Shown here one piece after another: positions 3,044 through 58,639 of a stretch of 64,000 nucleotides of DNA. The notes beneath the pieces are model-generated. The model had not been told where the DNA came from, searched no databases, and saw only the letters and a list, made by a program, of their open reading frames with translations. Location of the stretch: IMG/VR virus record IMGVR_UViG_3300030329_004481; one strand, written 5' to 3'. Positions within the stretch are counted from its first letter, which is position 1. Every line of letters begins with the position of its first letter. The position numbers were made by a program, and so were the translations under genes. This stretch comes from a virus.

Positions 3044-3430
3044 CTACTTAACCTCTGTACTCCTAGTGATTTCAAGGATCTTATCTATTTGTTTCTGAAT
3101 TTTATCAGTTCTATTCGGCCAATAGATATATTCCTTTTCTGGGTTTTTCATCAAGTTTTTAAGTAATGGAATTATCATTTTTTCCAAACCCTTGAAAACT
3201 TGTTTGTTTTCTTCTTTATATTTTTCTTCTAGTTCTTTCTTTCTAGCATCAACCTCCAATGTCAACATAGTTTGAATTGTATCTAGTCTTTCTAAAACAT
3301 GATTGCTCTGTACTTCAACTTTTCCAACAGCTTCTGCTGTTTTAGAAGGACTAACTATTTCTCCAAGTTCATCTGCATCAACTGCAGAAAAACCAAAATC
3401 AAAATCTAAATCTTCCCAATCGTCAGCCAT
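3044..3430 (-). CDS. Conserved hypothetical protein of T4-like phages
   Basis: DFDFGFSAVD N-terminus and IIPLLKNLMKNPEKEYIYWPNR motif; co-oriented and abutting the upstream gene. Confidence 0.7.
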   Translation of the reverse strand: MADDWEDLDFDFGFSAVDADELGEIVSPSKTAEAVGKVEVQSNHVLERLDTIQTMLTLEVDARKKELEEKYKEENKQVFKGLEKMIIPLLKNLMKNPEKEYIYWPNRTDKIQKQIDKILEITRSTEVK

Positions 3431-4611
3431 TATTTAAATCCTATTTTTCTTAACTGTTTAATTGTATCATCAGCACTAGTGTGATGAATTCCTATTCCAC
3501 CCTTTGCTCTAAATTCTTTTATATTACCTTCATGATCATCTATTAAAACATTTGGTCTTCCATCTCTACCATCTTTGGCAAACTGTTGTTTGTCTTGTCT
3601 AGAAACTGCTCTCATATCACTTTGATCTAAATTAAAATGTCTTTTCATCCATTTAGTTTTATCACCTGCTGCTTGTTGTGATATTTTCCCTCTACTACTT
3701 CTTGGAATAGCAGTTAACATAATTGGTTTATATTTTCCAATAAATCCCCAAAGTTTTTTAGCATCTGGCATTAGTGGAAGTTTAGCAAAAGTGTTAGAAG
3801 GTAGATCAGGCCAAAACTTATCTTTAAACTTTGTACCTAAATGTTTACCAGTAAATGCATGAAAATCTGCAACCACTCCATCCATATCACAATAGATTTG
3901 TGGTGCATCAAATTCTTTCAATTCAATTTCTTCTTTAAATCTTTTCAATTTCTTTTCTTTGTCTATCCATTTTTTAGCAATGTGATTATCTAAAGGTTTT
4001 TGAACTATTGATCTTATTTTAACAAAAACTTTTCTTAGAACATCCTCATCCGCATCATTATTATCAACAATAATAAAATTTTTATTACCAAAATATCCTT
4101 GAAACTTTCCAAGATTTTTTTGAACATCTTCCCAACTTGATTTTACAATATTATCTGGTAATGTTCTAGATCTCATTTGATTTCTTTGTAATGCAACATC
4201 TAGAGATGTATTTACAAATATCATTAATGTATCATAACCAAGACCACGCAATCCCTCTGAAGCTGATTTAATTCTATCATAATCTTTACCAGTACCATCA
4301 ATAATTAAACCAAGTCTACCATCAACCCATTGCCTCATTCTCATCTTTGTAAGTTTCTTTGCTCTATCTCTTATAACTTGCGATCTTTCAAAATCTTTAT
4401 CATCAAATTTTGTAAAGTCCATTCCCAATCCAGATGATTTTAATTTAAGTTCATATATATCATCTGAATTAACAATCTTCATTCCCAATCCACCTGTAGC
4501 TTTATCAGCAACATATGACTTACCAGAACCTGGCCCACCCGCTAGAAATATTGCTTTGAATATTGAAGGGTCATACATCCCTTCAGTCAAAAATTGATCA
4601 AAAGATCTCAT
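3430..4611 (-). CDS. P-loop (PNK/AAA_33/zeta-like) kinase fused to HAD 5'(3')-nucleotidase-like phosphatase; N-terminal capsid-targeting-like leader
   Basis: Likely start MRSFDQFLTE at 4611; Walker A GGPGSGKS, VNSDD, IIDGTG, lid ALQRNQMRSR; HAD motifs YCDMDGVVADF, LTA, K, LIDD. Confidence 0.8.
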   Translation of the reverse strand: MRSFDQFLTEGMYDPSIFKAIFLAGGPGSGKSYVADKATGGLGMKIVNSDDIYELKLKSSGLGMDFTKFDDKDFERSQVIRDRAKKLTKMRMRQWVDGRLGLIIDGTGKDYDRIKSASEGLRGLGYDTLMIFVNTSLDVALQRNQMRSRTLPDNIVKSSWEDVQKNLGKFQGYFGNKNFIIVDNNDADEDVLRKVFVKIRSIVQKPLDNHIAKKWIDKEKKLKRFKEEIELKEFDAPQIYCDMDGVVADFHAFTGKHLGTKFKDKFWPDLPSNTFAKLPLMPDAKKLWGFIGKYKPIMLTAIPRSSRGKISQQAAGDKTKWMKRHFNLDQSDMRAVSRQDKQQFAKDGRDGRPNVLIDDHEGNIKEFRAKGGIGIHHTSADDTIKQLRKIGFK

Positions 4612-5182
4612 GCCATTGATCTCCATGTTTTTTTGTATAGTACATACTTGTTTCTAGTTTTTCCTCAACTGTAAATTGTTCATCTTTCATTTTCAATAGA
4701 AATTTTTGATCTCTTTGTTTCCCCTTATGTAATTTGGAAAACAAATCTTGAAATTGATTTCCTCTACTATCTACAGAAATACTTTTTCCACCATGATCAA
4801 ACCGAGCATGTACTTTACCATGATCATTTCCTGGTGACTTGTTTGTACCTAAAAGTGAAAAATCTTCACCATCTTTATGAATAACAGAATGTTGATCATA
4901 TTTTTTTCCTAATTCTAACATATGTTTTCTTTCAATATTAGGAATCATTAAAGATTTTTCTTTTACAAATCCACCTTCTTCTTTATATCCACCTCTCATT
5001 TCAACATACCCATGACCCAACTTTCTGACATGCTTTTTTAATTCAGAAAATCTTCTCTCATTTTCTTCATCAGAATGTTCTTGTCTATGTGGAGACAATA
5101 TACCCATCTTTGGTGTATGATTGACGTGATGCATTACTCTAGATAAACTAGACTCATCAATTGATTGTTTGAAACTTTTCAT
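4598..5182 (-). CDS. Putative SAM lyase (T3 SAMase-like) with capsid-targeting-like leader
   Basis: ILSPHR...DEENERR, GGYKE, KEKSLMI, LGKKYDQHSVI follow the order of the T3 SAMase motifs as recalled (LVSAFR...DEVNMSR, GCYRE, EEKTV, EWEQDCVL); starts MKSFKQSIDE. Confidence 0.6.
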   Translation of the reverse strand: MKSFKQSIDESSLSRVMHHVNHTPKMGILSPHRQEHSDEENERRFSELKKHVRKLGHGYVEMRGGYKEEGGFVKEKSLMIPNIERKHMLELGKKYDQHSVIHKDGEDFSLLGTNKSPGNDHGKVHARFDHGGKSISVDSRGNQFQDLFSKLHKGKQRDQKFLLKMKDEQFTVEEKLETSMYYTKKHGDQWHEIF

Positions 5183-5184
5183 TT

Positions 5185-5331
5185 TTAATCCTGTGAATCA
5201 ATAAAATCTTGTTTTGTTGGCGCACCTTTTGAACCAGGTTTGCGCATAGGTCTTCCTTCTTTTCTTTTTTTATGGATATTATGCCATAACCCTTTATTTT
5301 TTTCTTCTAAAAATTGCTTAAATGTTACCAT
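5185..5331 (-). CDS. Small basic protein (48 aa), putative internal head protein
   Basis: Not in the ORF track. MVTFKQFLEEKNKGLWHNIHKKRKEGRPMRKPGSKGAPTKQDFIDSQD*; overlaps the upstream stop (ATGGTAA) and fills the gap exactly. Confidence 0.75.
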   Translation of the reverse strand: MVTFKQFLEEKNKGLWHNIHKKRKEGRPMRKPGSKGAPTKQDFIDSQD

Positions 5332-5594
5332 GCTTTACAACTCCAATATCTTGCTTTAGTTCTTGGTCCAGGATTATCACAATTATGCCTCGCTCTAAAA
5401 GATTTTCTTCTAGCTGGGTTTGATTTTTTAATCCTCATGTTAGGATCACCGAATTCAACTTTTTTAACATTACCAGTTGATGGATCTTTAACATATACTT
5501 TTGACTTTTTAACATCACCTTTCATTTTTTTACCAAGAGGAACGTCTCTACCTTGATACTCTGCTTCCGTTACAAACTCTCTATATGTCTTCAT
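5325..5594 (-). CDS. Small basic protein (DUF6321-like), putative internal head protein
   Basis: MKTYREFVTE leader; VKKVEFGDPNMRIKKSNPARRKSFRARHNC...ARYWSCKAW. Confidence 0.8.
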   Translation of the reverse strand: MKTYREFVTEAEYQGRDVPLGKKMKGDVKKSKVYVKDPSTGNVKKVEFGDPNMRIKKSNPARRKSFRARHNCDNPGPRTKARYWSCKAW

Positions 5595-5598
5595 TTTC

Positions 5599-7239
5599 TT
5601 ACTTTCTTACGTTAGCTACTGAATCTCCAGGGTTTCCTGTTTTGTTTAATATTGATACATGATATATTCTATTTGGATCAGGATTTGATTGAATCAAATC
5701 TGTAACATAATCCCTCATCTCACTTTGTTGACGTATAGTAGTATACCATGAGATTCTACCATTGTCAACTATTTTCTGTGGCTTATTAAAATGTATTGGA
5801 AAATCAACATCAGAAAAGGTTGCTCCTTTAAATTCTGCTCTCATTTTTTTCCATTCACTTCCAGAAGCCAACGTTATATGCAAATCTTTGTCTACTAATG
5901 GTTTTAACTCTGGTTCTCTTTTCAAAACCATTTTTTGCATTTGCTTTATTATATTTATTTCTTTTGGTTTTAACTTATACTTGAGAACACTTTCAACTTT
6001 TATTTCTTCATTTATTCCAATTTGATTCATTAAAGATTTCTTGTCATTCTTTCCTGTCTCTACTGCATATTTAAATAACATATTTAATGCATCACCAATT
6101 GCTCTACCCCTAAGACCTGCTTGTGAAAGATCTCTACCATTGACTCCTAACTCTTTGAGAGAAGTTGGTTTTCCTTTTCTTTTCATATCTGCTAATATCA
6201 TTGATACTGTTTTTTGTTTTTTTGCTTTCAAATATTCATCAATATTTTTTATAGCAGATGGGTGACTTGAAGTATATTGAACCAATTCTAATTCATTGTT
6301 AAGTATAGAAGGATTGTGAATTACCATAACTACACCTTCTATTGATTTTTTTGTTTCATTTGATATTTTCATTGTTCTCTGTGCATTTTCTCCTGCTAAC
6401 CATTTATAATCTTTTAATAGTATAGCTAAAAATGCAGGAAACGCAGACTTTTCAAGTTTATCCATTGTATCATAATCAATGTCTCTTATACCTTTAAACA
6501 AATTGCTCATTAATCCAGTTTTAAACATCAACTTAACACCTTTACTTGGTACAGTTGATTTTGTAAACATCTTTGCAAATTCTTCTTGGAATCTATCTGG
6601 TGATACTGTTTTAATTTTTTCAGATTGTTTTTTAATTTCTCTTTCTGTTTTTGGTTCTAAATTAAAATCAAATCTGGCTGCAAATTGCATTGCTCTCATC
6701 ATTCTCAACGGATCTTCTTCAAATGCGTTTGGACTAATTACAGATATCTGTTTGTTCTCAATGTCAAACTGTCCTCTACCCTCTATGTCGTGTGTTTCAC
6801 CAGTTTCAACATCTTTAGCGATAGCATTCATCCAAAAGTCTCTACGCATTTGATCTTGTTGTAAAGTGATACCTTTACCTAACTTGACTTCAAAATCTTT
6901 ATGTCCAGACCCTGTGCTTTTCTCATCAACTCTTGGAACAGAAATATCAATAGGTTCATCACCTTTTTCAAAATGAGTTGGAGTAAATTTTAATATACCA
7001 AAAGATTTTCCAACAGCATCAACCCTACCAAATTTAGATATCAATTTTGATAACTCATCAAGTTCTAAACCAACCACAAGTAGATCTAAATCTTTTGATA
7101 TTTTACCCAACATTTCATCACGCACCGCTCCACCAATTTGATATATTTTTCCACCAGCAGTTTTAATTGCGGACTTAACCTCTGGTTTAAGTGCGTGGGA
7201 CACATTTGATTCTATTATGTAATTTTTAAATTTTCTCAT
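5599..7239 (-). CDS. Class II tRNA nucleotidyltransferase (CCA-adding/poly(A) polymerase family) fused to a C-terminal 2H phosphoesterase; capsid-targeting-like leader
   Basis: GGAVRD..KDLDL, D..RRDFWMNAIA, FEEDPLRMMRAMQFAARF, SPDRFQEEF; C-terminal LHITLA and YHVSI; starts MRKFKNYIIE. Confidence 0.88.
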   Translation of the reverse strand: MRKFKNYIIESNVSHALKPEVKSAIKTAGGKIYQIGGAVRDEMLGKISKDLDLLVVGLELDELSKLISKFGRVDAVGKSFGILKFTPTHFEKGDEPIDISVPRVDEKSTGSGHKDFEVKLGKGITLQQDQMRRDFWMNAIAKDVETGETHDIEGRGQFDIENKQISVISPNAFEEDPLRMMRAMQFAARFDFNLEPKTEREIKKQSEKIKTVSPDRFQEEFAKMFTKSTVPSKGVKLMFKTGLMSNLFKGIRDIDYDTMDKLEKSAFPAFLAILLKDYKWLAGENAQRTMKISNETKKSIEGVVMVIHNPSILNNELELVQYTSSHPSAIKNIDEYLKAKKQKTVSMILADMKRKGKPTSLKELGVNGRDLSQAGLRGRAIGDALNMLFKYAVETGKNDKKSLMNQIGINEEIKVESVLKYKLKPKEINIIKQMQKMVLKREPELKPLVDKDLHITLASGSEWKKMRAEFKGATFSDVDFPIHFNKPQKIVDNGRISWYTTIRQQSEMRDYVTDLIQSNPDPNRIYHVSILNKTGNPGDSVANVRK

Positions 7240-7252: not shown

Positions 7253-7936
7253 CTAACACCTATTTGATAATAAACATATTAATTCATTAAATCCCATAAC
7301 TGTAAATGCCCATTCACCTTGAATTGTCACATAAAGAGATTTAATTCCATCTAAAAATATGTAAGAAGTTATAGCACCAATAATACCACAAAGAAATGAT
7401 TGAAAACTATACCTTAGCCATTTAAATTTATTTGTTGCTAACACTCTACCTAGTCCATATATATCACCAACTATAGCATCGTAAGTTCTTGAATCTCTTT
7501 CTAATCTTTGTGCATACTCTTGTTTAAATTCTTCTAATGGTATGTATGAAAAATGCCCAAAAAACAACGGATTAAAAAATGGTGATGATCTGTCTATTTC
7601 TTTTGATCCTGGTTTTTTAGGATATCCTGTTCTTGGCATAATTACAGCAATAGCACATAATAGTGCGATAGTAGAAAAAAATCCTAGTATAGATAATGGT
7701 ACTGCAACTTGTTCATGTTCCATGTTAGCAACTGTTACAGAAAAAACAATTGAAGAAACTGTTATCATTATATTAGCTTTTGTATCAGCCATTAATGACA
7801 TCTGTACTATGTTTGTAAGATTAAGACGAAGAATATTATCTACCGCAGTAGAAGATTTTCCTTCATTAGTTTTATCTAATTCTTCAAATAAAGTATCTGG
7901 TGCTTCAAAGTTTTGAATATCCCATTGATCTCTCAT
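7253..7936 (-). CDS. Pycsar effector family (DUF5706/PycTM-like) membrane protein
   Basis: MSLMADTKANIMITVSSI, TM-TM-PR, NPLFFGHFS, DIYGLGRVLATNKFKWLRYSF, third TM. Confidence 0.85.
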   Translation of the reverse strand: MRDQWDIQNFEAPDTLFEELDKTNEGKSSTAVDNILRLNLTNIVQMSLMADTKANIMITVSSIVFSVTVANMEHEQVAVPLSILGFFSTIALLCAIAVIMPRTGYPKKPGSKEIDRSSPFFNPLFFGHFSYIPLEEFKQEYAQRLERDSRTYDAIVGDIYGLGRVLATNKFKWLRYSFQSFLCGIIGAITSYIFLDGIKSLYVTIQGEWAFTVMGFNELICLLSNRC

Positions 7937-9010: not shown

Positions 9011-10420
9011 TTATCTTAGTGGTGGAGCGTAAAGTAAACCCCCTTGAGTATACAACTTATTGTAACCTCTTTTTAAATTTATAGGAGTTTCTGTCCCAAG
9101 ATATTTTTCGTAAATTTCTTCATAATTACCTATTTGTTTTATAATTTGATATGCCCAATCTGCATTCAATCCTAACTTTGCACCAAGATGTGGAAACTTA
9201 TCACCATCTCTCTCACCCATAAATCTTTGTATTTTAGGATCTTTATTTTCTTTAAACATATCAATATTTTGAGAAGTAATTCCCAATTCTTCTGCAATAA
9301 AAAATACATAAACTGACCATCTTGTAATATCTGACCATAATTGATCACCATATCTTATTGCTGGACCAAGTGGTTCTTTTGAAATTACTTCTGGCAAAAT
9401 CATATGTTTTTCTGGTTCTGGATATTTTGTTCTGTCTCCCGCCAATGCTGATCTATCAATACCATACATATCGCACTCACCCTGTAAATATAATTCAACA
9501 ATATCTTCATCAGGATAAACACCAACTGGTAAATATTTCATATTCCATAGTTCAAAGAAATCTTTGATGTTTTGTTCTGCAGTAGTGTCAATACTGTAAC
9601 AAACTGTGGCTCCGGAAAGGTCTTTAGCACTTTTTGCACCAAGTGTTTTTCTAACCATAAAACCTTGACCATCATAAAATGTTGTTGGTAAAAATTCTAT
9701 ACCATGAATAACATCTCTTGTATATGTCCATGTGGTTGTTGCAGACAATGCATCAATAGTACCATCTTTCAATCTTTCAAATCTAGTTCTACCAGTGATA
9801 GGAATGAATCTAATTTTTTCTTTATCTCCAAATATTGCAACTGCAAATGATTTACAAATATCTGCATCAAAGCCTTCCCAAATATGATACATTGGACCTT
9901 CAGACGGATTTATTGTTTTTCCTGACCTTTCACTAAATCCCCATTGATTATCATAAACACCACATTTTACATATCCACGTTCTTTTATTTTTTGTACTGT
10001 AGTTCCATATTGTGGATTGTATTCATTGCCCCCTTGATACTCATCTTCTGGCCCTTGTACCATTGAAATGTGTTCACTCTCAACTGACTTTAATCTTATA
10101 ATTTCTTGTTGTAAATTATCATATTCTTTTTTAGGAACTACCTCAACACTAGGAATCATACCTGAAAACATTGCTTCTCTTTGTTTTGCCAGATCATCAA
10201 TCTTTGCTTGTAATGATAATCTATCTCCTATATCAGTAGCAGGATCATCTCTCCTTTCCACTAACATATTAATTTCATCTTGAAGTGTGCGTATTGAACC
10301 CTCTAAAGTTTCATCAACAACTTTTATATTTCCCTTGGGATCTGCGAATACTTTTTGCCCTATTGTTTCTGTTGGGATTAATAATAAAGTAAAAAGTAAA
10401 ATAACAAATAGTGATTTCAT
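9011..10420 (-). CDS. General L-amino-acid ABC transporter substrate-binding protein (AapJ/BztA-like) with extra N-terminal coiled coil
   Basis: Signal peptide; GFDADICK, TTTWTYTRD, TTFYDGQGFMV, ILPEVISKEPLGP, IGNYEEIYE, RGYNKLYTQGGLLYAPPLR. Confidence 0.92.
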   Translation of the reverse strand: MKSLFVILLFTLLLIPTETIGQKVFADPKGNIKVVDETLEGSIRTLQDEINMLVERRDDPATDIGDRLSLQAKIDDLAKQREAMFSGMIPSVEVVPKKEYDNLQQEIIRLKSVESEHISMVQGPEDEYQGGNEYNPQYGTTVQKIKERGYVKCGVYDNQWGFSERSGKTINPSEGPMYHIWEGFDADICKSFAVAIFGDKEKIRFIPITGRTRFERLKDGTIDALSATTTWTYTRDVIHGIEFLPTTFYDGQGFMVRKTLGAKSAKDLSGATVCYSIDTTAEQNIKDFFELWNMKYLPVGVYPDEDIVELYLQGECDMYGIDRSALAGDRTKYPEPEKHMILPEVISKEPLGPAIRYGDQLWSDITRWSVYVFFIAEELGITSQNIDMFKENKDPKIQRFMGERDGDKFPHLGAKLGLNADWAYQIIKQIGNYEEIYEKYLGTETPINLKRGYNKLYTQGGLLYAPPLR

Positions 10421-10881
10421 TTTAGTGTTCTGTAGATTTCCATTAATTCAGCATCAGGCATTTCTTGTGCCATAGTATAATATCTCTGATGCCCAACTTT
10501 CATAAAACCTTTGAGATCTGCAAAACTTGGATAAGTTGCATGAAGGCCAGATATTAAATGATCTGGATCTAAATGACATTCTGCACAAGCATTTCCTTTT
10601 GCAAAAACTCTTGTACCTAATTTATATCTTTCACTTTGTACCAATACTGTATTTAAATCTTTTTCTACCCATCTTATTTTTTCATCTAAATCTGGTATGA
10701 CCATAAAAATAAGATATGCAACAAGTCCCAGAATAACTAAAATAAAAGTTTTTTGTCCTTTTATAGATGCAAGAGTTTCTTCCTCAATTGCTTTAACAGG
10801 TTCAAACTCTACTTTTTCATCTCCATTTGTAGTTACTGTTGCTTTTATTGATCCTTCAGATTGCTTCTTTGCTTGTGCCAT
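10417..10881 (-). CDS. Membrane-anchored mono-haem c-type cytochrome
   Basis: Single TM, then G.RVF...CAECH and a distal MP (QEMPDAEL). Confidence 0.7.
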   Translation of the reverse strand: MAQAKKQSEGSIKATVTTNGDEKVEFEPVKAIEEETLASIKGQKTFILVILGLVAYLIFMVIPDLDEKIRWVEKDLNTVLVQSERYKLGTRVFAKGNACAECHLDPDHLISGLHATYPSFADLKGFMKVGHQRYYTMAQEMPDAELMEIYRTLK

Positions 10882-13367: not shown

Positions 13368-14114
13368 TTATCCTACTGCAAAATCAACTGGATATTGATA
13401 TTTGTTTTCTAATTCATCCTTGAGAACTTCAATATTTGTTTTTGCTTCATCGAGTATAGTTCTACCATCAAGTGTTGTTCCTCCAGGTAATTGAACTCCT
13501 TGATATTTGATTAAATTATATCCCCATTGTTGTCTAAACAGCTCTGTAGTGTATTTTTTTAACCACATATCATTATAAACATCCGTATATGTTGTTGGTT
13601 CAACCAATTGAAAAGCTTCAGCAACTAGATATTCATCTACTGCAAATTCTTTAGACCAATCTACATCAACATACAATCTATCTTGATGTCTAGAAAATCT
13701 CATTCCTGGTTTACCACTAAATAATTCTTGTAGTACACCCAAATGTTGTTGTGTCATATAATATGGTACTACTGACGTTTTAGCTAGATCATAAACATCA
13801 TTTAAGTACATTTGATATCTAACGTCAAACATATTCTTGACTGAGCCTGAACCTAATGGAAAAACTCTAATAATACCAATTGTACCTTCTGACACTGTGA
13901 TATATTCATTGTCTATGTCTGTTTGAGTTATTTGATGTTTTAAATATGTTTTTACTGTTGCATCTGCGTGAAACTCTTGAAACATTTGAAGACTTTCTTC
14001 TACTCTGTCTTCAAGTTGATCATCGTCAACATTTATTTGTATAACTGGTTTCCCCAATGCTCTCAAACAATATTCTTTTAATTCTGTTCTTGATGCGGGT
14101 TGTGTCATTGACAT
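13368..14114 (-). CDS. 13: Neck protein (T4 gp13-like)
   Basis: LKEYCLRALGKPVIQINVDDDQLEDR, YNDMWLKKY, QWG.NL.KY.GVQLPGG.TLDG. Confidence 0.95.
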   Translation of the reverse strand: MSMTQPASRTELKEYCLRALGKPVIQINVDDDQLEDRVEESLQMFQEFHADATVKTYLKHQITQTDIDNEYITVSEGTIGIIRVFPLGSGSVKNMFDVRYQMYLNDVYDLAKTSVVPYYMTQQHLGVLQELFSGKPGMRFSRHQDRLYVDVDWSKEFAVDEYLVAEAFQLVEPTTYTDVYNDMWLKKYTTELFRQQWGYNLIKYQGVQLPGGTTLDGRTILDEAKTNIEVLKDELENKYQYPVDFAVG

Positions 14115-14156
14115 ACAATATCCTATTTTTAAGGCGTTAATATATATACTATAATC

Positions 14157-14164
14157 TATTTATA
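14157..14164 (-). promoter_or_regulatory. T4-type late promoter (TATAAATA) for the gp13 operon
   Basis: Exact consensus in the 58-nt divergent gap, ~40 nt upstream of the gp13 ATG. Confidence 0.75.
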
Positions 14165-14172
14165 AGGAAGGA

Positions 14173-14874
14173 TTGATGACAACTGAGATTGATGAAAACA
14201 AGATAAACATTGATTATTCTTTGTTTTCTTGGGATGATTATGAAGAATTTATGACGCAAGTACAATATGTTCTTATGAATCCATTTTGGTGTGTTTCAAA
14301 TCAACATATTAATATGATGTGTGAGATAATTGATCATGACAATGATAAACTTTTAGAACATTCTCTAAAATCATTTGATGAAAAATATACCCAAATTCAA
14401 CAAATACATTTGCACAACTTCTATTTGCAACAAGTTGATACATTTTTTAATATATTTTTACTTTACAATAATCACAATTTTAATTATCAAAATAATATAA
14501 AAGAATTAACAAAAAAATATGGAAGGTATGATGATCAAATAGAAAAATATGTTATTGTGACAAATGTAGAAGAATATGAACTATTTATTAAAGAAAAACA
14601 AAAATTAGACAGTACTCTTGCGTTAACTGAATATGATAAAATAAATCCTAATTTATACCTACAAGAAATAAATTTAATTTTATTTAAAACTGAACGAACA
14701 AAATACAACAGTTATTTATCAATAATTGATGAAAATGCGGACAACGCTCCGCCAAAATATAAACGCAAACCACTATTAATGTACAAACTTATTTCAGATA
14801 TCTTTGATATCAAAAAAATTCAAAATTTAAAAATAAATTATGAACTAATCAATAAGCATTTTACAAATTACTAA
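14173..14874 (+). CDS. Hypothetical protein, paralogue of 15536..16177
   Basis: SD AAGGAAGG; shares INxxYSxFxW, YxKIxP and DIFDxxxxxNLKINxxxIN with the downstream paralogue. Confidence 0.7.
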   Translation: MMTTEIDENKINIDYSLFSWDDYEEFMTQVQYVLMNPFWCVSNQHINMMCEIIDHDNDKLLEHSLKSFDEKYTQIQQIHLHNFYLQQVDTFFNIFLLYNNHNFNYQNNIKELTKKYGRYDDQIEKYVIVTNVEEYELFIKEKQKLDSTLALTEYDKINPNLYLQEINLILFKTERTKYNSYLSIIDENADNAPPKYKRKPLLMYKLISDIFDIKKIQNLKINYELINKHFTNY

Positions 14875-15542
14875 TGGAACTATTAATTACTGGTGATAAA
14901 GGTTTTATAGGATCAAATCTTGTAAACTATTTAAAAGATTATCATATCTATGGTATAGATTATCCCAATAACATTATGACTTGTGTTTTACCACCTGTTG
15001 ATTGTGTAATACATTTGGCGGCTTCAACAGGTGTAAGAGGATCACATAAACATCCAAAATCATATTTTGATAATAATGTAAAAGCAACAAAAAGAATATT
15101 TGATCATTATAAAGATACAAAAATTTTATTCGCATCAACATCATCTGTAAAACAATTACAAAGTCCATATTCAATGTCAAAATATGCTTGTGAACTTATG
15201 GCTCCTGATAATGTTGTGATCATGAGATTTTTTACTGTATGGGGAGAACAAAATTATAGGAGTGATATGTTATATGGTATGGCTATGAATGATAAATTAA
15301 AATATGTAACAGATCATAAAAGAGATTTTACTCACATCTATGATGTTTGTAGAGCAATTAAAATTCTGATTGAAAAGGGAGTTGGTGGAGAAACTTATGA
15401 AATAGGACATGGAACACCAATTACTAATTCTGCATTTTTAAAAAAGATAGGGTACAATAAATCGTTGAAAATAAAAGAAGTAGAAGGTGAATCTGATATT
15501 ACTTGTGCAGATCCAACCAAAATAAAAGAATTGGGATGGTAA
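14874..15542 (+). CDS. NAD-dependent epimerase/dehydratase (extended SDR)
   Basis: ITGDKGFIGS, VIHLAA, ASTSS, YSMSK (YxxxK), RFFTVWG, RDFTHIYD. Confidence 0.92.
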   Translation: MELLITGDKGFIGSNLVNYLKDYHIYGIDYPNNIMTCVLPPVDCVIHLAASTGVRGSHKHPKSYFDNNVKATKRIFDHYKDTKILFASTSSVKQLQSPYSMSKYACELMAPDNVVIMRFFTVWGEQNYRSDMLYGMAMNDKLKYVTDHKRDFTHIYDVCRAIKILIEKGVGGETYEIGHGTPITNSAFLKKIGYNKSLKIKEVEGESDITCADPTKIKELGW

Positions 15543-16177
15543 AAAAAGTTAAGATAAATTATAGTTATTTTGAATGGTCTTATTTTTCTGATATTTTAAA
15601 AATAATATCTAGAATATGTTTATATCCTGCTGAATTGACCGGGCCAAGGATAGGAAATAAAATGATGTCATTTTTTGATGAAAATACTCTTAAATTTTCA
15701 AAGGATAGAAAATTTCAAATATATTTAAATATTACAAAAAATATAAACACATTATATAAAATATTCAAAGAATATGAATTGCATTACAATATCTACAAAA
15801 ATGAAAAAAAGAATATAACAAATGATCAAAACTTATTACTTGAAAATAATAAAATTATTAAAAAAATTGATAAATTAAATAAAAAAGTGCACACATTATC
15901 ATACAATAAAATTGATCCAAAATATTTTATATTTACTTTTTATTATATGCATAAAGCTTTTGGAAAATATATGGTTGGTTCTAAAGGTTTTAATAATAGT
16001 GAGAATGGAAATGAACTACAAGATATATCAAATATAAAAATGATAATGAAAGAACCTTTTTTTACTGTACATATATTTGATGTTTTATATGATATTTTTG
16101 ATATGGACGAACTAGACAATTTAAAAATAAATGAAAAAATTATAAATGAGATGTATTCAGAGTTAATAAATGATTGA
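15536..16177 (+). CDS. Hypothetical protein, paralogue of 14173..14874
   Basis: Likely ATG at 15536 (MVKKVKINYSYFEW) overlapping the upstream stop; shared terminal motifs. Confidence 0.65.
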   Translation: MVKKVKINYSYFEWSYFSDILKIISRICLYPAELTGPRIGNKMMSFFDENTLKFSKDRKFQIYLNITKNINTLYKIFKEYELHYNIYKNEKKNITNDQNLLLENNKIIKKIDKLNKKVHTLSYNKIDPKYFIFTFYYMHKAFGKYMVGSKGFNNSENGNELQDISNIKMIMKEPFFTVHIFDVLYDIFDMDELDNLKINEKIINEMYSELIND

Positions 16178-16784
16178 TATTATAATAATATTTTTATGGT
16201 GGCACATCATAGCAACATTTGGATTATCAATAGGATATCATCGATATTTTTCTCACCAAACATTTAAAGTATCGTATACTTGGGAAATAATATTTTTAAT
16301 ATGTGGTTATATGTGTGGAGCAAGATCACCAATTACTTGGGCAGCAGTTCATAGATTACATCATGAATATTCAGATACTAAAAAAGATCCACATTCACCA
16401 AAATTTATAGGATTAAAATCTTTATTTTCATTGTGGACTATTGATTACATTCCAAAAAAATATTTCAAAGGATTATTAACTCCCCATTTAAGATTTGCTC
16501 ACAAATATGGAAAATATATATGGTTAGGAATAGGTTTGATACTATTGATAATTAATTTCAATTTCTTTGTAATTTTTTGGTTGTCACCATTTTTAATTAG
16601 TTATATTGGATTTGGAATATTAAATTATTTTGGTCACAATCCAACTCCAACTAATAGATTGTGGATTAATTTATTTGCTCCAAGTGAAGGTTGGCATGAA
16701 GAACATCACAATCATCCATCAAAATATAAAATGAACAAATATGATATCGCTGGATTCATTATTACAAAAATCAAAAGCAGTTAG
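16170..16784 (+). CDS. Membrane fatty acid desaturase (delta-9/acyl-CoA type)
   Basis: His boxes HRYFSH, HRLHH, HEEHH; SDT..DPHSP; TM segments. Confidence 0.92.
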   Translation: MIDIIIIFLWWHIIATFGLSIGYHRYFSHQTFKVSYTWEIIFLICGYMCGARSPITWAAVHRLHHEYSDTKKDPHSPKFIGLKSLFSLWTIDYIPKKYFKGLLTPHLRFAHKYGKYIWLGIGLILLIINFNFFVIFWLSPFLISYIGFGILNYFGHNPTPTNRLWINLFAPSEGWHEEHHNHPSKYKMNKYDIAGFIITKIKSS

Positions 16785-52421: not shown

Positions 52422-52643
52422 CTATATTTTATTAAGTAGTAGTTCATTTAATTTTTCTTTTAATTCATCAACATCATTTTCCAAATTGGAAACTTTATCA
52501 TTTAATATATTTATCTCTTGTTCTTTATTCTCTATCGATTTTCTCATTCTCCTATGAGCCTTTAAAGAACTAATATCATTCCTTAAAACTGCTTTACTAG
52601 AGGTATCTTTAACATACCCTGGAACATCAGTTTGTACAATCAT
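52422..52643 (-). CDS. Small coiled-coil virion-module protein
   Basis: VPGYVKD..SKAVL then heptad repeats; directly follows the VrlC-like gene. Confidence 0.75.
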   Translation of the reverse strand: MIVQTDVPGYVKDTSSKAVLRNDISSLKAHRRMRKSIENKEQEINILNDKVSNLENDVDELKEKLNELLLNKI

Positions 52644-55600
52644 GTGTCTAACGCTATCACTCTTAAATCTTTAACTTTTGGAATATCAACAAAACTTGAT
52701 GATGCAAGAACAATTTTAATTGCAAAAGTTCTAAAATTATTATAAGTATTATTTCCTGCTGTATATTCTGCGGTATCATTAACAGTTCTAAACTCAAATG
52801 TTTGAAAATCATTATCATTTGATGAAAATAAATTTGAATCTGTCACTTGACTCATCTTTATCCAATATTTATCATCAAATGATTCACTATCACCAGCACT
52901 CAATACTTTATAATAAGCAATAATATTTGATGTACTTGGTTTATATGCTCTCAAATAAACTTTCAAATCTTCAGCATCGAATCCTGAAGCCAATGATACC
53001 CTTCTAGTAATATATCTTGCGATGTTATTACCACCATTTTGATTTGTTTCAGATGATATTTTAATTTCACCACCTGAACCACCAGAAAGTGTGACACTAG
53101 CATCATCAAAATATCCAGAACCTGCTGAACTAACTGTTGCTCCTGTTATAACACCTGATCCATCTACAGCCAATGTTACTTGACCAGAAGAACCTGTTGA
53201 TCCATTAATTGCCAAAGTTCCTGCAGAATAACCAGTTCCAGGACTTATAATTGAAACATCATCATTTGTAAATCCGCCATTCTGGATATTATTTTTTACT
53301 GTAATTAAATTTAGTCTTGATAAATCAATTATTGGTGAAACATTTGGATCTGTAGTTGACATACCAACTCTCAATAAGAAGTCTGGTCTAGATGTTCCAT
53401 CAAAATTATCAGTTCTTATCCATTTTCTTTCAGAAAAATTTTCATTCTTTCCAGCCAAAATTGATGTATAAGAAGTTTCTCTTGTTCCTGCGTCTGCAGT
53501 TGTTGTTTGATATTCATAATCAAGAACACTAGATGAAAATCTTAAATCTGAAGAATTTAGTTTCATTAGATCAAAATATGTATGTGATGTTGATCCAGAT
53601 AATGATTTTGGTACAACATTCAATGCTATTTGATTAGCGACTGAAGATGTTGTTTGAAATGCACATTTTTCTATCTTAAACATCAAAGTTCTATTGTAAA
53701 TTGGATTCCACAAACTTGCGTTTTGTGCAATGAATAATTTACCAACTTCTGTTGATTTGCCAGCTTTAGTATTCAAAACTGTCGTATTTGTAACAATGTT
53801 TCCTTCAACTGAATTATGAACTTTATAGTTTGAACTATTTGTTTGAACAGTAAAACAATGTTCTCCTGGTGGTAAATATACAGGTGATGAAAATGTAAAT
53901 TTTGTTCCACTAGTTGCTGAAGTTGAATCAGGAGAATTTTCTATTGAAACTTGTCCTGGTAATAATGATTTTTCTGAAAAAGGTAATACGACTGATGAAC
54001 TAGGAACACCATTTACCATTGGCCTGATTTGTAATGTAATTGGTAATTCAGTATCTTTATTGTTGAAATATAAAGAAATACTACTAATAAATGTTCCATT
54101 TGGATATCTTGCCTCATCAACATAAAATGTTTGAGCCATAGGATTAGTAAAATTACTTGATGGATTTTTTCTTGTGACAGAATCTTTTGTTAAAATATTT
54201 GACGTAATATCATCACGTCTAACTAACGCAGATCTTGTAGAAATTACATCACCATCTGAAACAGATTCCAATCCTTTTATATGAAACACCTTTTCAGAAA
54301 CAGAAGTTGTTTCAGAAACAATATTATCAGATTGATCTGTTATTCTAATAACTCTTTCACCTGCTCTAAATTGTCCACTATTAATTTTTATACTTCCACA
54401 CAAAACCCCAGTCGCGTCAGGCACAAAACCAGTATTAGCAACATCTGCGGTCAGAGTTGCTTCTTTAGTTGTTGATCCTGAAGAATCAATATAAGTTGCT
54501 TGAATTTCTGTTCCAGATCCAGCTATACCAGAATCTAACCAATTATTACTTGTATTTGCTATTAAAAATGTAGTATTACCATTCACATCTGTAGCAACTA
54601 AAGTACCAAAAACATCTGTAGCACCTGTTTTATGTATTCTAACAAGTTCACCTTCATTTGCTTCAAATGGAGTTTGTGTTGATGTTGTCAATTTAACTGC
54701 TGATTCTGATTGTGAAGTAACATTAACATCATCTATATAAACATAATGTAATGCTTTTGGTTTTAATCCTTCAGCTTTAAAAATTACTGTCTGTTCTCTT
54801 GAATATGGAATGATAGTATCATTAACTATTTTATTATTTACAGTTTTCTTAATTGTTTCTGGTTGATTTTTTGATAAAATACCTTCTCTAGAAATACTTT
54901 CTTCTATAGTTTTTGCTGATCTATCTACTTGAGTTGTTATTGATTTTTTCTTTCTTGTCTTTGTCAAATCATCTGTATTAATTTCTTCACCTGTCCAATT
55001 TTTGGACCATGAATCCCATTGAGTACCAAACCCAAAATTATATCTTGACGCAGACCAATTATCATTTTGTCCTTCTAGATTCATTAATACATCAACATAT
55101 TTGCTTTGTGAAAACCATGTATCACTTGGGGGAGTTAATAACATAGTTCCACTAAATGGTGTGGAACCAAAAGGATTTACAACTTCTGTTCCTGTTGTTA
55201 CTGGTTGAACCACAAAATCTGAATTAGTATAAGCAACTGATACTAAGTCACCAGTTTTAATAACATTTGTTCCATTTTGACTTGGATTAAATTCAAACTT
55301 AAAATTTTCAGATGTATATGAAGGCCTTAAAATTGATTTATCATAATCTATAGAAATTTTATAATCATCATCTACAACGTCTCCAACACTATGTCCTGTG
55401 AATTGATCAACTAAAATTCCATTTTTAAATCTTTCAACACCGGAATCTGTAAAAATTGGTTGATCCTTTGCATCCTTTTCTAAAAAAGTCAATGACGTAT
55501 AATATTCTAATTGCTCAATTCTTTTCTCCAAAGAACCAATATCTCTCATTGTAAATCTTTTATTTTCAATATATTGAAGATCTATGTCATTTAAATTAAA

Positions 55601-58600
55601 AGTATATTCTGGAATATCAGCAATATAGAGCGTCATTGAATCTTCTTCATCTGCTGGAGCAATCGGATCAACTGAAGAAATTCCTTCAATAATTTTAAAA
55701 TTTCTATCTTTCGAAACTACTATCTTGTCTTTTCTTGGAAGATAATATTCAACATCCGTTGTAAACACAACATCTGAATCAGGTATTCTAGGATAAGTAT
55801 AACTCGCACCTTCAATTGATACACTATCAAAACTATAATCTGAAGACGCATCTCCATCAACTCTCCTTGGTCGAAAATCAACACAATTTCTCAAGTTTAC
55901 TTGTTTACCAGTTTTTGGACTTACAAATTCTGGAATACTTGAATAAGCAATGGTACTGTAAGAATCTACAGTAAATGGTCCATCAGTTGTTCCATGTGTG
56001 AAAAAATCAAATATTGCTAAAATTGGTGTTGTTGCTGCTGATTTTCCTGGTTTCAATGATATTGAACCATGATCATATATGTTATCTTTTTGCCCTGTAT
56101 TTAAATTATAATTATCTGTAATATTATTTGAATCAGAAGTTGAAGCAATTGCTGAACTTAAAACACCAGATGTAATTCCTGAAATATCAGATGTTGGTGA
56201 TTTAACAACAGCCAACAATGTACTAACATCAGAAGTTTTTAAACTAATCGTAGTATTAGAATAATCAGCTACAGAAGTTGCTTTATATTGCCCCAACCCT
56301 CTCAAGATAGTTTCATTACTTCCAGAAGTAAATGATGTTGTATTTCCTTGAACTAATGTTTTTGTGTTAAATGCCGCAGAAGCAACTGTAGAAAGATTAA
56401 TTGTTACATAAACATCAGCTTGGAAGGTATCTGAAGCACTTCCTGTATTAAGAGTTAACCCTGTTCCTGCTCCATTTAAATCTGCCGCTTGAGTACCAGT
56501 TCCAGGAATTATATTAATTATTTCTCCTGCTGATTTACCAGAACTCAATGGATCAGTAACAGTTACTATGATATTATTTAAAAATCCTGTGGTTCCTAAA
56601 GATTGTCCAGGAGTACCAGCAAAAGTTCCAGAGGTTATACTTTTAGTAAAAACACCCGCACTAAAACTTTGATTTTTAAATAAATGTTTTACAGAATAAA
56701 CATAATTACTAGAATTTGTTGGTTTTAAAGTTTTTACAACATTTTGTGGTAAATCATAAACCAATGAACTTTTGTCTGTTTCAAAAAATTTAGTTCCACT
56801 AGTATTATCCAAATTATCAACTCTACCATAAATTGAAATGTCTCCACTACTAACTACCTTAAAAGTGGAATTGGATGTTATTATTGAATCTAATTGTTTA
56901 GCTGTAAAATCTATTCGACAAGTATTACTTGAGACAATGTTAGTTAAAAATGCTTTATCAACCGTAACAGTGTTACCACTATGTACTGTTATTGTTCTTG
57001 TTTGACCAATAGCATCACCACTTGTCATTGTTATTTTTGCACCAACATAAGCTGAAGTAACTGCTGAAGATGTAGTTGAATCTAAATCAATAGTAAGATC
57101 ACCCGCAGTAGTTGTTCCAGAAGCAGATGAAGTAATACTAGTAATATCAGTATCATAGACATATAAATCATAAACTCCATCAGTTCCAGGAGTTCCAGTA
57201 AAATAATCAATTTGTCTTGGACGTGCCGTACCTATTTTAGTTAATTCATATGTAGATTGGGTTGTTGTAACAATATCTGTAGCAGCAACACAATGTAAAT
57301 CAATTTTTGATTGTGTACTAATATCAAAAGATTTTGATAAATTTGTTATTCTAAAATAATTGCCAAAATTTGGGTTTACTACCGCATTGAGTGCACTAGC
57401 TGTATCTCTACCTTTGCGCATATCAATAAAATTAGTTCCCATACTTTCATATTCATAACCTCTTATATACGCTTTTCCAGATTCTAATCCAACAGAAACT
57501 TTATCATTATTGACTATTCTTTGTGTTTCACCAGAACCAAGTGCATCAGTAACCGTCATTACAGTATTGCTTGTTATTCCTGTAATTGTTGTTGATGTTG
57601 AATTTACTGAACCATTTGTTAAATAAATTGAATCACCAACTCTAAAATCTATTTCAAATTTAGACGCAGATGAACCATTAATTGTTGTTGTAGAACTTGC
57701 AGTTGTTGTATAAACCGTGCCTTTATGATCATTAACATTTGATAAAAATGGTCTTACTGTGTAATTACCAGATTCATCAAAAGTTCTTCTTGACATTATA
57801 TTTTCAAGTTCTCCATACAATGGATAATTTACAATCTTTTCAATTTGTCCAGATCTAACTCTTAACAATTCAACAAAATTAGTATGAGATATTGTTGCTA
57901 ATGCATTTTTAGATAATATTAAAGATATTTTATATCTATCTGCTCCTGGAGCATTAACATTATATGAACCAGATGCATTATCTAATAATGTCAAATCATC
58001 ATCACTTGAAACAATTGATTCTGAAATGGTCAATCCAACTTTATAACTAGGAGTGTTATTATATTTTTCTAAAATTAAAGCTTGAGCATCAACCAAAACA
58101 AAAAATCCATTTACATAATAAACACCATCATTAATTGTTGCAACTGATGACAATCCACTAATTGTTCCTGATGCCGCAGTTACACAAGTTGTATCAGAAT
58201 CCGTAGCTATTTGAATATTTACACCTGTTGCTGTAATTTTATCACTTGCCATATATCTGACAACTAATGTTGGGGGATCAGTACCTTCTGAATCAGCAAC
58301 CGCAATACATTCTGCCAGAGTATTATTGTCAGTATCACCAACCAATTTTATTTTTTGATTTAAAAAGGATGATTGATTTGTAGTAGAATCTGCTAATCTT
58401 ATATAATAAACATTATTATCAAAACTAATTTCACCACCAGTTACTAAACTACCATCTTTATATAAAGAATCACCAAATCTTGAAATTTGATTTTGTAAAA
58501 ATGTTTGTATCTGTGTGAGTTCTCTAACTTGTAAAGAAACACCCGGTTGAAACAACAATCTAAGGAATTTTTTTGCTTCAGCGTAATCATCAAAATAAGG

Positions 58601-58639
58601 TGATTGCTGTAATGTAGAAAGTAAACTTAATGTAGCCAT
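52640..58639 (-). CDS. Large virion structural protein, VrlC/DUF4815-like
   Basis: SPYFDDY....F.R.LF.PG..LQ.RELTQ.Q, NAPGADRYK, RRTFDESGNY.V, RFTMRDIG.LEKRI..LEYYTSL, RFKNG..VD.F, P.AQTF, F..FAIKIVL...P.VKDLRVIAL. Confidence 0.9.
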   Translation of the reverse strand: MATLSLLSTLQQSPYFDDYAEAKKFLRLLFQPGVSLQVRELTQIQTFLQNQISRFGDSLYKDGSLVTGGEISFDNNVYYIRLADSTTNQSSFLNQKIKLVGDTDNNTLAECIAVADSEGTDPPTLVVRYMASDKITATGVNIQIATDSDTTCVTAASGTISGLSSVATINDGVYYVNGFFVLVDAQALILEKYNNTPSYKVGLTISESIVSSDDDLTLLDNASGSYNVNAPGADRYKISLILSKNALATISHTNFVELLRVRSGQIEKIVNYPLYGELENIMSRRTFDESGNYTVRPFLSNVNDHKGTVYTTTASSTTTINGSSASKFEIDFRVGDSIYLTNGSVNSTSTTITGITSNTVMTVTDALGSGETQRIVNNDKVSVGLESGKAYIRGYEYESMGTNFIDMRKGRDTASALNAVVNPNFGNYFRITNLSKSFDISTQSKIDLHCVAATDIVTTTQSTYELTKIGTARPRQIDYFTGTPGTDGVYDLYVYDTDITSITSSASGTTTAGDLTIDLDSTTSSAVTSAYVGAKITMTSGDAIGQTRTITVHSGNTVTVDKAFLTNIVSSNTCRIDFTAKQLDSIITSNSTFKVVSSGDISIYGRVDNLDNTSGTKFFETDKSSLVYDLPQNVVKTLKPTNSSNYVYSVKHLFKNQSFSAGVFTKSITSGTFAGTPGQSLGTTGFLNNIIVTVTDPLSSGKSAGEIINIIPGTGTQAADLNGAGTGLTLNTGSASDTFQADVYVTINLSTVASAAFNTKTLVQGNTTSFTSGSNETILRGLGQYKATSVADYSNTTISLKTSDVSTLLAVVKSPTSDISGITSGVLSSAIASTSDSNNITDNYNLNTGQKDNIYDHGSISLKPGKSAATTPILAIFDFFTHGTTDGPFTVDSYSTIAYSSIPEFVSPKTGKQVNLRNCVDFRPRRVDGDASSDYSFDSVSIEGASYTYPRIPDSDVVFTTDVEYYLPRKDKIVVSKDRNFKIIEGISSVDPIAPADEEDSMTLYIADIPEYTFNLNDIDLQYIENKRFTMRDIGSLEKRIEQLEYYTSLTFLEKDAKDQPIFTDSGVERFKNGILVDQFTGHSVGDVVDDDYKISIDYDKSILRPSYTSENFKFEFNPSQNGTNVIKTGDLVSVAYTNSDFVVQPVTTGTEVVNPFGSTPFSGTMLLTPPSDTWFSQSKYVDVLMNLEGQNDNWSASRYNFGFGTQWDSWSKNWTGEEINTDDLTKTRKKKSITTQVDRSAKTIEESISREGILSKNQPETIKKTVNNKIVNDTIIPYSREQTVIFKAEGLKPKALHYVYIDDVNVTSQSESAVKLTTSTQTPFEANEGELVRIHKTGATDVFGTLVATDVNGNTTFLIANTSNNWLDSGIAGSGTEIQATYIDSSGSTTKEATLTADVANTGFVPDATGVLCGSIKINSGQFRAGERVIRITDQSDNIVSETTSVSEKVFHIKGLESVSDGDVISTRSALVRRDDITSNILTKDSVTRKNPSSNFTNPMAQTFYVDEARYPNGTFISSISLYFNNKDTELPITLQIRPMVNGVPSSSVVLPFSEKSLLPGQVSIENSPDSTSATSGTKFTFSSPVYLPPGEHCFTVQTNSSNYKVHNSVEGNIVTNTTVLNTKAGKSTEVGKLFIAQNASLWNPIYNRTLMFKIEKCAFQTTSSVANQIALNVVPKSLSGSTSHTYFDLMKLNSSDLRFSSSVLDYEYQTTTADAGTRETSYTSILAGKNENFSERKWIRTDNFDGTSRPDFLLRVGMSTTDPNVSPIIDLSRLNLITVKNNIQNGGFTNDDVSIISPGTGYSAGTLAINGSTGSSGQVTLAVDGSGVITGATVSSAGSGYFDDASVTLSGGSGGEIKISSETNQNGGNNIARYITRRVSLASGFDAEDLKVYLRAYKPSTSNIIAYYKVLSAGDSESFDDKYWIKMSQVTDSNLFSSNDNDFQTFEFRTVNDTAEYTAGNNTYNNFRTFAIKIVLASSSFVDIPKVKDLRVIALDT

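Follow-up and report, generated by a model that had tools for sequence, protein, structure and literature searches.

Why would a T4-like phage join a CCA-type tRNA nucleotidyltransferase (NTase) to a 2H phosphoesterase in a single reading frame? This question is raised by one gene in a 64,000-nucleotide stretch of viral DNA, the IMG/VR record IMGVR_UViG_3300030329_004481 (hereafter "the window"). The window belongs to a T4-like myovirus, with genes for gp15, the gp14 neck protein, a gp16-like protein, gp8 baseplate proteins, and large tail-fibre-like proteins, and has a G+C content of about 30%. Sequence, profile, and fold evidence confirm that it encodes a complete class II tRNA NTase joined to a minimal 2H phosphoesterase, here called NTase-2H. 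In the reading that we favour, and to which we give a probability of roughly one in two, NTase-2H is an injected enzyme that would heal and rebuild damaged tRNA 3' ends, possibly after being cut into two enzymes in the phage head.

The fusion protein and its two domains

The gene and the relevant parts of its product are the following.

5599..7239 (-), the NTase-2H fusion gene, encoding protein P0001 of 546 amino acids (open reading frame (ORF) list and translation; 12 distinct fused homologs at 27-98% identity)
7210..7239 (-), leader MRKFKNYIIE, residues 1-10, ending in I-I-E; it resembles the T4 capsid-targeting sequence (CTS) and is conserved in homologs
6019..7173 (-), class II tRNA NTase, residues 23-407, with head, neck, body, and tail (NCBIfam, Foldseek, Pfam, PHROG)
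7084..7134 (-), motif A, consisting of GGAVRD (residues 36-41, 7117-7134) and the catalytic DLD (residues 50-52, 7084-7092), read from the translation and invariant in the 12 fused homologs
6838..6858 (-), motif D, QDQMRRD, residues 128-134 (canonical EDxxRRD), aligned to EDLRRRD of PDB entry 6ibp
5992..6018 (-), junction GINEEIKVE, residues 408-416, predicted to be disordered, with an I-N-E site of the gp21 type
5602..5991 (-), minimal 2H phosphoesterase domain, residues 417-546 (AlphaFold2 (AF2) model, VIA-align, Foldseek against PDB and BFVD; 72 representative relatives)
5869..5880 (-), first catalytic motif of the 2H domain, H454-I-T-L, with an invariant His and a Thr conserved in at least 90% of 43 homologs; in alignments it falls on the first HxT both in Acb1 (7t26) and in T4 57B
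5650..5670 (-), second catalytic motif, R524-I-Y-H527-V-S-I (H527-V-S-I at 5650-5661), with R524 and H527 invariant

The frame is open over all 546 codons, with no internal stop; the upstream gene ends 13 nucleotides before it and the next gene starts 4 nucleotides after it. The chance that two separate genes were joined here by an assembly or frameshift artefact is practically nil. The split form, an NTase gene followed by a 2H gene, does occur in relatives, but the 12 distinct fused sequences come from independent metagenomes, range from 27% to 98% identity, and all lie in a single frame. The AF2 model of the full-length protein has a mean predicted local distance difference test (pLDDT) score of 80.6, with three segments below 50, including residues 1-15 and the residues 409-416 that link the two domains.

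The original prediction had described a complete class II catalytic core, and this description holds: GGAVRD, DLD, RRD, and EDPLR are all present and invariant in the 12 fused homologs, in which the neck motif EDPLRxxRAxxF shows no variation, and Pfam, PHROG, and NCBIfam agree on the assignment. Pfam places PolyA_pol at residues 33-165 (3.9e-15) and PolyA_pol_RNAbd at residues 191-251 (3.7e-14), with a weak match to tRNA_NucTran2_2 at residues 286-405, while PHROG 2244, a tRNA nucleotidyltransferase, is matched at 4e-56. The NCBIfam model of the Bacillus-type CCA enzyme, PRK13299, is covered from position 14 to position 390 of 396 (3.8e-35), with a score of 121.7 bits against an equivalog cut-off of 290; the other CCA models and the PcnB model likewise stay below their cut-offs. 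As judged from its sequence, the NTase part is a member of the superfamily and not an equivalog of any named enzyme. The top Foldseek matches are the CCA-adding enzymes 6qxn, 1miv, and 3h37 (E 5e-14 to 3e-12; template modelling (TM) score normalized by target about 0.7), and the alignments to whole CCA enzymes span about 405-440 columns, in agreement with a full head-neck-body-tail architecture.

The altered motif D noticed in the original prediction is real at the sequence level. In the alignment to 6ibp, the first E is replaced by Q while the D and R residues are kept; D129, R132, R133, and D134 are invariant in the 12 fused homologs, and at the first position every T4-like member has Q128, whereas the jumbo-phage homolog has N. 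This substitution bears on the possibility that the NTase is a poly(A) polymerase, adds tails of another kind, or serves phage tRNAs as a housekeeping enzyme, with no function in common with the 2H domain to which it is fused. Such a role would fit with the scores below every NCBIfam CCA equivalog cut-off, with the match to PcnB at 7e-27, with the Q in motif D, and with the wide distribution of CCA-family genes in phages. Nevertheless, full-length CCA-adding enzymes are the best matches in both sequence and fold and rank above the A-adding enzymes and the poly(A) polymerases, the latter at TM scores of about 0.5, and the templating D and R are retained. As for phage tRNAs, all seven tRNA genes found in the relatives (7/7) already encode CCA, so that they can mature with no need of an NTase. 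We therefore reject tRNA maturation as the main role and favour repair, and we consider the tailing or housekeeping role quite unlikely.

The region that follows the NTase had been outlined in the original prediction as a tail of about 5599-6010 with the paired Hx(T/S) motifs of 2H enzymes, and both points are borne out: the domain lies at 5602-5991, and 5992-6018 is the junction. The tail contains exactly two HxT/S motifs, with 73 residues between the His residues. An exhaustive phmmer search over 1.84 billion representatives yielded the 72 relatives, 43 of which were aligned: H454, R524, and H527 are invariant, and T456, S497, Q505, N532, G535, and S540 are conserved in at least 90%. The last three lie in a clade signature, N-K-T-G-x-x-G-D-S-V, which comes after the second catalytic motif. 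The AF2 model of the tail built with this alignment has a pLDDT of 92.4, and in VIA-align its 42 best PDB entries are all 2H proteins (Z 8.8-4.7), with root-mean-square deviations of 2.9-4.3 over 92-121 residues, whereas the next, unrelated chains reach Z of at most 2.5. The matched entries include the LigT-like 1vdx, 1iuh, and 5ldi, Acb1 (7t26), the phage BCSR5 phosphodiesterase (PDE) 9q2g, cyclic phosphodiesterase (CPDase), MHV ns2, Usb1, AKAP18, and ASCC1. Likewise, the first 35 or so Foldseek matches in the PDB are all 2H enzymes, at modest E values of about 1e-2. Because the two motifs are conserved in the 43 homologs and the tail folds with high confidence and matches only 2H enzymes, they are not a product of chance. 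In other words, the bilobed alpha+beta 2H fold and both catalytic motifs of the tail, one per lobe, are established at the level of sequence and model.

Despite this clear fold, the tail escapes the family libraries. In a Pfam scan of residues 409-546 with E values up to 10, no 2H family was matched, LigT and 2_5_RNA_ligase2 included, and scans of the same residues against PHROGs and NCBIfam gave no match to a 2H family; a TRI4_N match in the library scans was judged to be spurious. No match was found by tblastn of the tail against 50,697 GenBank phage records (E 0.01) or by megablast of the region, and a search of about 185,000 species genomes with the tail gave a single match, on a 15-kb contig of a metagenome-assembled genome. 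The tail defines a 2H clade that occurs almost only in viral contigs and is unannotated in Pfam, PHROGs, and NCBIfam.

The original prediction had also spoken of a 2H phosphoesterase in place of an HD domain. The Pfam scan detected no HD domain in the fusion protein, as that wording implies, but the NTase part is a complete enzyme of the Bacillus type, in which an HD domain was never present, and the 2H domain is added behind it; the latter would be a functional analogue of an HD domain and not its replacement.

Leaders, junctions, and putative capsid cargo

The N-terminus of the fusion protein, MRKFKNYIIES, is similar to those of the T4 internal proteins IPIII and IPII (both MKTYQEFIAEA) and IPI (MKTFKEF). 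The first 10 residues of IPIII are its CTS and are enough for targeting to the head, and the prohead protease gp21 cleaves after L/I-X-E (PMC9026906). In the T-even phages, the internal proteins are varied anti-defence proteins with the CTS as their sole common part (PMC3012670). Four neighbouring genes are needed for what follows, three of them downstream and one upstream of the fusion.

5325..5594 (-), gene for 89 amino acids, starting with MKTYREFVTEAEY, in which 8 of 11 residues are identical to the T4 IPIII leader; it matches phrog_7595
4598..5182 (-), DUF3293/SAM-lyase-like gene (SAM, S-adenosylmethionine) with the leader MKSFKQSIDES (Pfam DUF3293 3.8e-10, S-AdoMet_lyase 4e-7)
3430..4626 (-), P-loop kinase joined in one protein to an NT5C-type HAD phosphatase, with a leader (Pfam Zeta_toxin/AAA_33 and NT5C)
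7253..7936 (-), PycTM/2TM effector-like membrane protein, upstream and lacking a leader (Pfam PycTM 3.7e-20; PADLOC PycTM 5.5e-15, near full length)

When all six frames of the window were searched for the pattern M-[KR]-x-[FY]-x-x-[hydrophobic]-[IVL]-x-E in ORFs of at least 60 amino acids, only four ORFs matched, and they are the consecutive genes in 3430-7239: the kinase-HAD gene (from its second Met), the DUF3293/SAM-lyase-like gene, the 89-amino-acid gene, and NTase-2H itself. Leaders are also carried in the relatives by stand-alone homologs of NTase, 2H, kinase, HAD, DUF3293, and the small protein, and were found there on none of the PycTM, SBP-like, and acidic neighbours. In one other lineage, the same enzyme types bear a leader of a second flavour, M-x-LLREYIR-x-LL-x-E, so that homologs of NTase, 2H, kinase, and HAD with leaders are found in two lineages. 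In the loci of the relatives (L010-L075 cited), 110 of 912 ORFs bear leaders. Leader-bearing families of 278-330 amino acids (20 members), of 407-411 amino acids (DUF6267), and of 68-70, 134, 173, and 234-263 amino acids are among them. Judged by these leaders, the proteins encoded there could well be capsid cargo, which would make for a large repertoire. The DUF3293 protein, if packaged, could be an injected SAM-degrading anti-restriction enzyme.

The junctions within the fused proteins point in the same direction. An [ILM]-x-E sequence at the junction of NTase and 2H is kept by all fused homologs, and the leaders of stand-alone 2H genes stop at the very place of the junction GINEE|IKVES, as in MKTFEEYNEE|IKVES. 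At the kinase|HAD junction of gene 3430-4626 there is a leader-like KRFKEEIELKEF, resembling the leaders of stand-alone HAD genes. Both fusions may therefore be merged neighbouring cargo genes, perhaps cut apart in the prohead. A protease of the gp21 type (Peptidase_S77) is encoded in four of five related viral records.

The substrate of the 2H domain and the favoured reading

Acb1, LigT, and CPDases had been named as the structures with which to compare the tail. All three were matched, but the fold scores leave the LigT and Acb1 types tied, so that the closest subfamily is not singled out. This tie bears directly on the other half of the original prediction, a CCA enzyme that carries an anti-CBASS-type nuclease. 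In this reading, the 2H domain would be an Acb1-type nuclease that destroys the cyclic (oligo)nucleotide signals of immune systems such as CBASS or Pycsar and is merely co-expressed and co-packaged with an unrelated tRNA NTase. Acb1 structures (7t26 and 7t27) and 9q2g, the PDE of a Burkholderia phage, belong to the group of tied best folds (Z 8.0-8.1), Acb1 (7t26) ranks first when the tail profile is compared with PDB sequences, at a non-significant E of 0.13, and both the size of the tail and its His spacing are close to those of T4 Acb1 (152 amino acids, His residues about 70 apart). Many members of the clade stand alone with no NTase, a PycTM-like gene lies directly upstream of the fusion, and the injection of a signal nuclease would make biological sense. 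On the other side, hhalign of the tail with T4 57B aligned both His motifs at a probability of 5.7%, which is not significant; the GenBank phages, carriers of Acb1 included, remained unmatched at E 0.01; and relatives at 82% identity (L001 and L002) or about 55% identity (L041-45 and L052) lack the PycTM adjacency. A signal nuclease gives no rationale for the repeated fusion or adjacency to a tRNA enzyme, a HAD, and genes of the RNA-repair type. The proposal is weakened by these results, and we regard it as unlikely.

The 2H domain might also act elsewhere, on free 2',3'-cyclic nucleoside monophosphates or ADP-ribose 1'',2''-cyclic phosphate, so feeding the NT5C-type HAD, or in a Usb1-like 3' trimming of aberrant tRNA tails before the re-addition of CCA. 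Usb1, plant CPDase, and AKAP18 are matched as well (Z 6.3-7.1), the linked HAD resembles NT5C, a mononucleotidase family, and ThyX is close to the kinase in some relatives; in addition, the clade has its own C-terminal motif, N-x-T-G-x-x-x-D-S, which is not seen in characterised 2H enzymes. However, none of these substrates has positive evidence, the linkage to a tRNA NTase favours an RNA end, and it is hard to see why an enzyme of nucleotide salvage should be packaged. These substrates, too, have only a small chance of being the right ones.

The surroundings of the 2H genes were compared in the relatives, the close ones of which come from marine metagenomes and IMG/VR viral contigs. ORFs were called in 73 loci and assigned by means of a 2H profile and the proteins of the window itself; the counts rest on 50 distinct variants of the 2H domain. 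In 12 of the 50, 2H is fused to NTase (537-556 amino acids), and in seven (7/50) it is a separate gene directly after an NTase gene of 404-434 amino acids. NTase is elsewhere in the locus in 1/50, the locus is cut at the contig end in 1/50, and 28/50 have no NTase within 6 kb. A coupling of domains is seen once more in a fusion of 2H to an NT5C-type HAD (P0057, 1/50). One fused homolog, P0052, is encoded on a 302-kb contig of a jumbo phage; two genes downstream of it lies a gene for an NT5C-type HAD, and four genes downstream one for HAD_SAK_1, an RNA-repair HAD.

We favour the healing and rebuilding of tRNA for three reasons: NTase and 2H are fused or directly adjacent in 19 of the 50 variants; the jumbo-phage protein P0052 is collinear with the window protein over the full length at 27% identity; and the sole match of the tail below E 1e-3 in the viral model library BFVD is a "Swiss Army Knife 2H phosphoesterase" of the RNA-repair type. 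We infer the substrate, the order of the steps, the phosphatase partner, the packaging, and the cleavage in the following scheme. Metal-independent RNases of the host, belonging to defence systems or toxins, would leave tRNAs whose CCA is incomplete and which end in a 2',3'-cyclic phosphate, which the 2H domain would open. Since the 2H reaction leaves a phosphomonoester, a separate phosphatase would still be needed to take off the remaining phosphate, after which the NTase would rebuild CCA. The candidate phosphomonoesterase partner, on sequence grounds, is the HAD half of the kinase-HAD protein encoded three genes downstream. PHROG relates this protein to polynucleotide kinase (1.5e-8) and to 5'-3' deoxyribonucleotidase (5e-22) and NCBIfam to PSTK (2.6e-7), and stand-alone homologs of both halves recur near 2H and NTase genes in the relatives in varied order. 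NTase-2H and the products of the next three leader-bearing genes would be loaded into the prohead, where a gp21-type protease would trim after I-I-E10 and possibly also at I-N-E411, freeing separate NTase and 2H enzymes. With injection alongside the DNA, repair could start before any phage gene is translated.

Several observations weigh against this scheme. The 28 variants with no NTase within 6 kb and a complete 191-kb relative in which 2H is present and the PolyA_pol NTase absent indicate that 2H does not depend on a phage NTase. No recognised RNA ligase is found in the relatives: Rnl2 (PF09414) is absent from five related viral records, and the search for Rnl1 (PF09511) in the same five, which matched nothing, is uninformative, as its controls matched nothing either. 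Both enzymatic activities are predicted ones, the fold does not tell RNA-end enzymes and Acb1-type nucleases apart, motif D has a Q where the canonical form starts with E, and specificity for CCA as opposed to CC, A, or poly(A) cannot be read from a sequence. Packaging is suggested by sequence resemblance alone, and no gene for a gp21-type protease was identified within the 64-kb window. If the fusion is merely a polyprotein of adjoining capsid cargo genes, it becomes weaker evidence for joint chemistry. Finally, the kinase and HAD may serve nucleotide metabolism, because the HAD is of the mononucleotidase type and the kinase is near ThyX in some relatives.

The heal-and-rebuild enzyme of the original prediction is thus favoured by the NTase linkage, but its "one chain" is doubtful: given a leader of the T4 capsid-targeting type and an I-x-E site in the disordered junction, the chain may be packaged as a precursor and split into two. 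A wider proposal, which we put forward only tentatively and consider less likely than not, is that marine T4-like phages pack a CTS-led translation-rescue kit, whose members would be an enzyme that adds CCA, a new cyclic phosphodiesterase of the 2H type, a kinase, and an HAD phosphatase; in relatives, a ligase-like DUF6267 protein may belong to it as well. This kit would be injected with the DNA and would heal tRNAs damaged by host defence nucleases before the first phage translation, with NTase-2H as a polyprotein precursor cut by the prohead protease.

The wider locus and known systems

Some further features of the locus and its relatives should be mentioned. The link of the PycTM gene to the fusion is uncertain. 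PycTM is found near NTase or 2H genes only in a single phage lineage, and the idea of a conserved PycTM-NTase pair was rejected for this reason. No cyclase was seen near the phage PycTM homolog, and in related contigs of marine phages (L009, L025-27, L032, L036-40, and L067) PycTM homologs have an SBP_bac_3-like gene beside them. In a phage, the protein might serve as a decoy, act in exclusion, or be related to lysis. In the relatives, leader-bearing DUF6267 proteins (411 amino acids, Pfam 5.7e-116) are encoded outside the window's own sequence, a few kb from 2H or NTase-2H genes (L048:3145-4377, L047:7505-8737, L041:8941-10182, and L052/L053:2-1024). Their motifs K-W-D-G, E-G-F-V, and K-L-V recall motifs I, IV, and V of covalent nucleotidyltransferases (ligases); searches of PDB sequences with DUF6267, as a single sequence or as a profile, gave no match, and the Atlas gave DUF6267 clusters only. 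Pfam scans of other recurrent neighbours in the relatives (302, 343, 671, 312, 342, 368, and 362 amino acids) gave nothing above the cut-off, the only such match being ThyX on a 279-amino-acid gene that adjoins the 343-amino-acid one.

Elsewhere in the window, the first two of the following genes lie between the packaging and neck genes and the cargo genes and look like host-derived auxiliary genes.

9011..10420 (-), 469-amino-acid protein resembling periplasmic amino-acid-binding proteins (NCBIfam Lys/Arg/Orn SBP 2.8e-33), with a signal-peptide-like N-terminus
10417..10881 (-), small protein with a cytochrome-c motif
52640..58639 (-), 1999-amino-acid protein with DUF4815 (2.3e-50), beside a gp8-like baseplate protein and a 1139-amino-acid ORF

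The DUF4815 protein and its neighbours are probably giant baseplate or fibre components. Two stretches, at about 14000-19000 and 24000-46000, have a G+C content of 23-27%, compared with about 31% elsewhere, and consist of tightly packed ORFs, mostly of about 150-600 amino acids and partly on the opposite strand.

Among known enzymes, E. coli Cca is the nearest in concept: it is a CCA-adding enzyme that carries its own phosphoesterase for blocked 3' ends, and the NTase heads are related (NCBIfam PRK10885, 1e-31 over the head). The activities of its HD domain reportedly heal 3' ends. The healing module of Cca, however, is a metal-dependent HD domain inside the body, whereas here a metal-independent 2H domain follows a complete Bacillus-type enzyme. 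The class II CCA enzymes of Bacillus, Planococcus, and Thermotoga (1miv, 6qxn, and 3h37) are the best full-length matches in sequence and fold and have the catalytic motifs in common with the fusion, but identity is only 20-24%, and the fusion differs in the Q for E in motif D, the extra N-terminal leader, and the C-terminal 2H domain. For the tail, the RNA 2',3'-cyclic phosphodiesterases of the LigT/ThpR type (1vdx, 1iuh, and 5ldi) share the fold, the paired HxT/S motifs, and the top Z scores (8.8-7.7). The tail differs from them in being about 50 residues shorter, at 11-14% identity, and in bearing its clade signature, R-x-x-H-x-S-x-x-N-x-T-G-x-x-x-D-S. Acb1 (T4 57B; 7t26) is, like the tail, a small phage 2H protein of comparable size and His spacing (Z 8.1), but its sequence-profile relation to the tail is non-significant. 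To our knowledge, Acb1 has no link to tRNA enzymes.

Phages are known to repair tRNAs that have been cut by host defences, as T4 does with Pnkp and Rnl1, and CCA enzymes occur in large phages. For phage RNA-repair sets and polyvalent or "Swiss Army Knife" repair proteins (Iyer et al. 2017, PMC5512222; Iyer et al. 2021, PMC7824862), which combine a CCA-adding enzyme, 2H, kinase, and HAD phosphatase, the proposed role is to undo the damage that the host inflicts on tRNA. Reviews list them as separate genes or as giant multi-domain proteins of jumbo phages, in contrast to the two-domain NTase-2H. Our literature search found no description of such a two-domain protein or of this 2H clade; a prior account in the survey of Burroughs and Aravind (2016) is possible. 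What appears to be new is the physical linkage of a CCA enzyme with a 2H-type healing domain, the 2H clade that is almost confined to viral contigs and unannotated in the libraries searched, and the capsid-targeting-type leaders on a whole set of enzymes. The fusion also offers a compact and easily assayed 2H enzyme of 130 residues, together with what may be a natural example of protease-linked enzyme cargo.

If these enzymes are injected, they would solve a chicken-and-egg problem, in which damage to tRNA stops translation and the repair enzymes therefore cannot be translated. The precedent is found in IPI, IPII, and IPIII of T4, which share with the proteins described here the MK-x-[FY]-x-x-[FY]-I-x-E leader, the T4-like phage, and the arrangement as a run of diverse neighbouring genes (PMC9026906, PMC3012670). 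The T4 proteins are small inhibitors, whereas the putative cargo here consists, as predicted from sequence, of enzymes of 20-60 kDa (NTase, 2H, kinase, HAD, and SAM-lyase-like). If this is true, the concept of the T4 internal proteins would extend from small inhibitors to whole enzymes.

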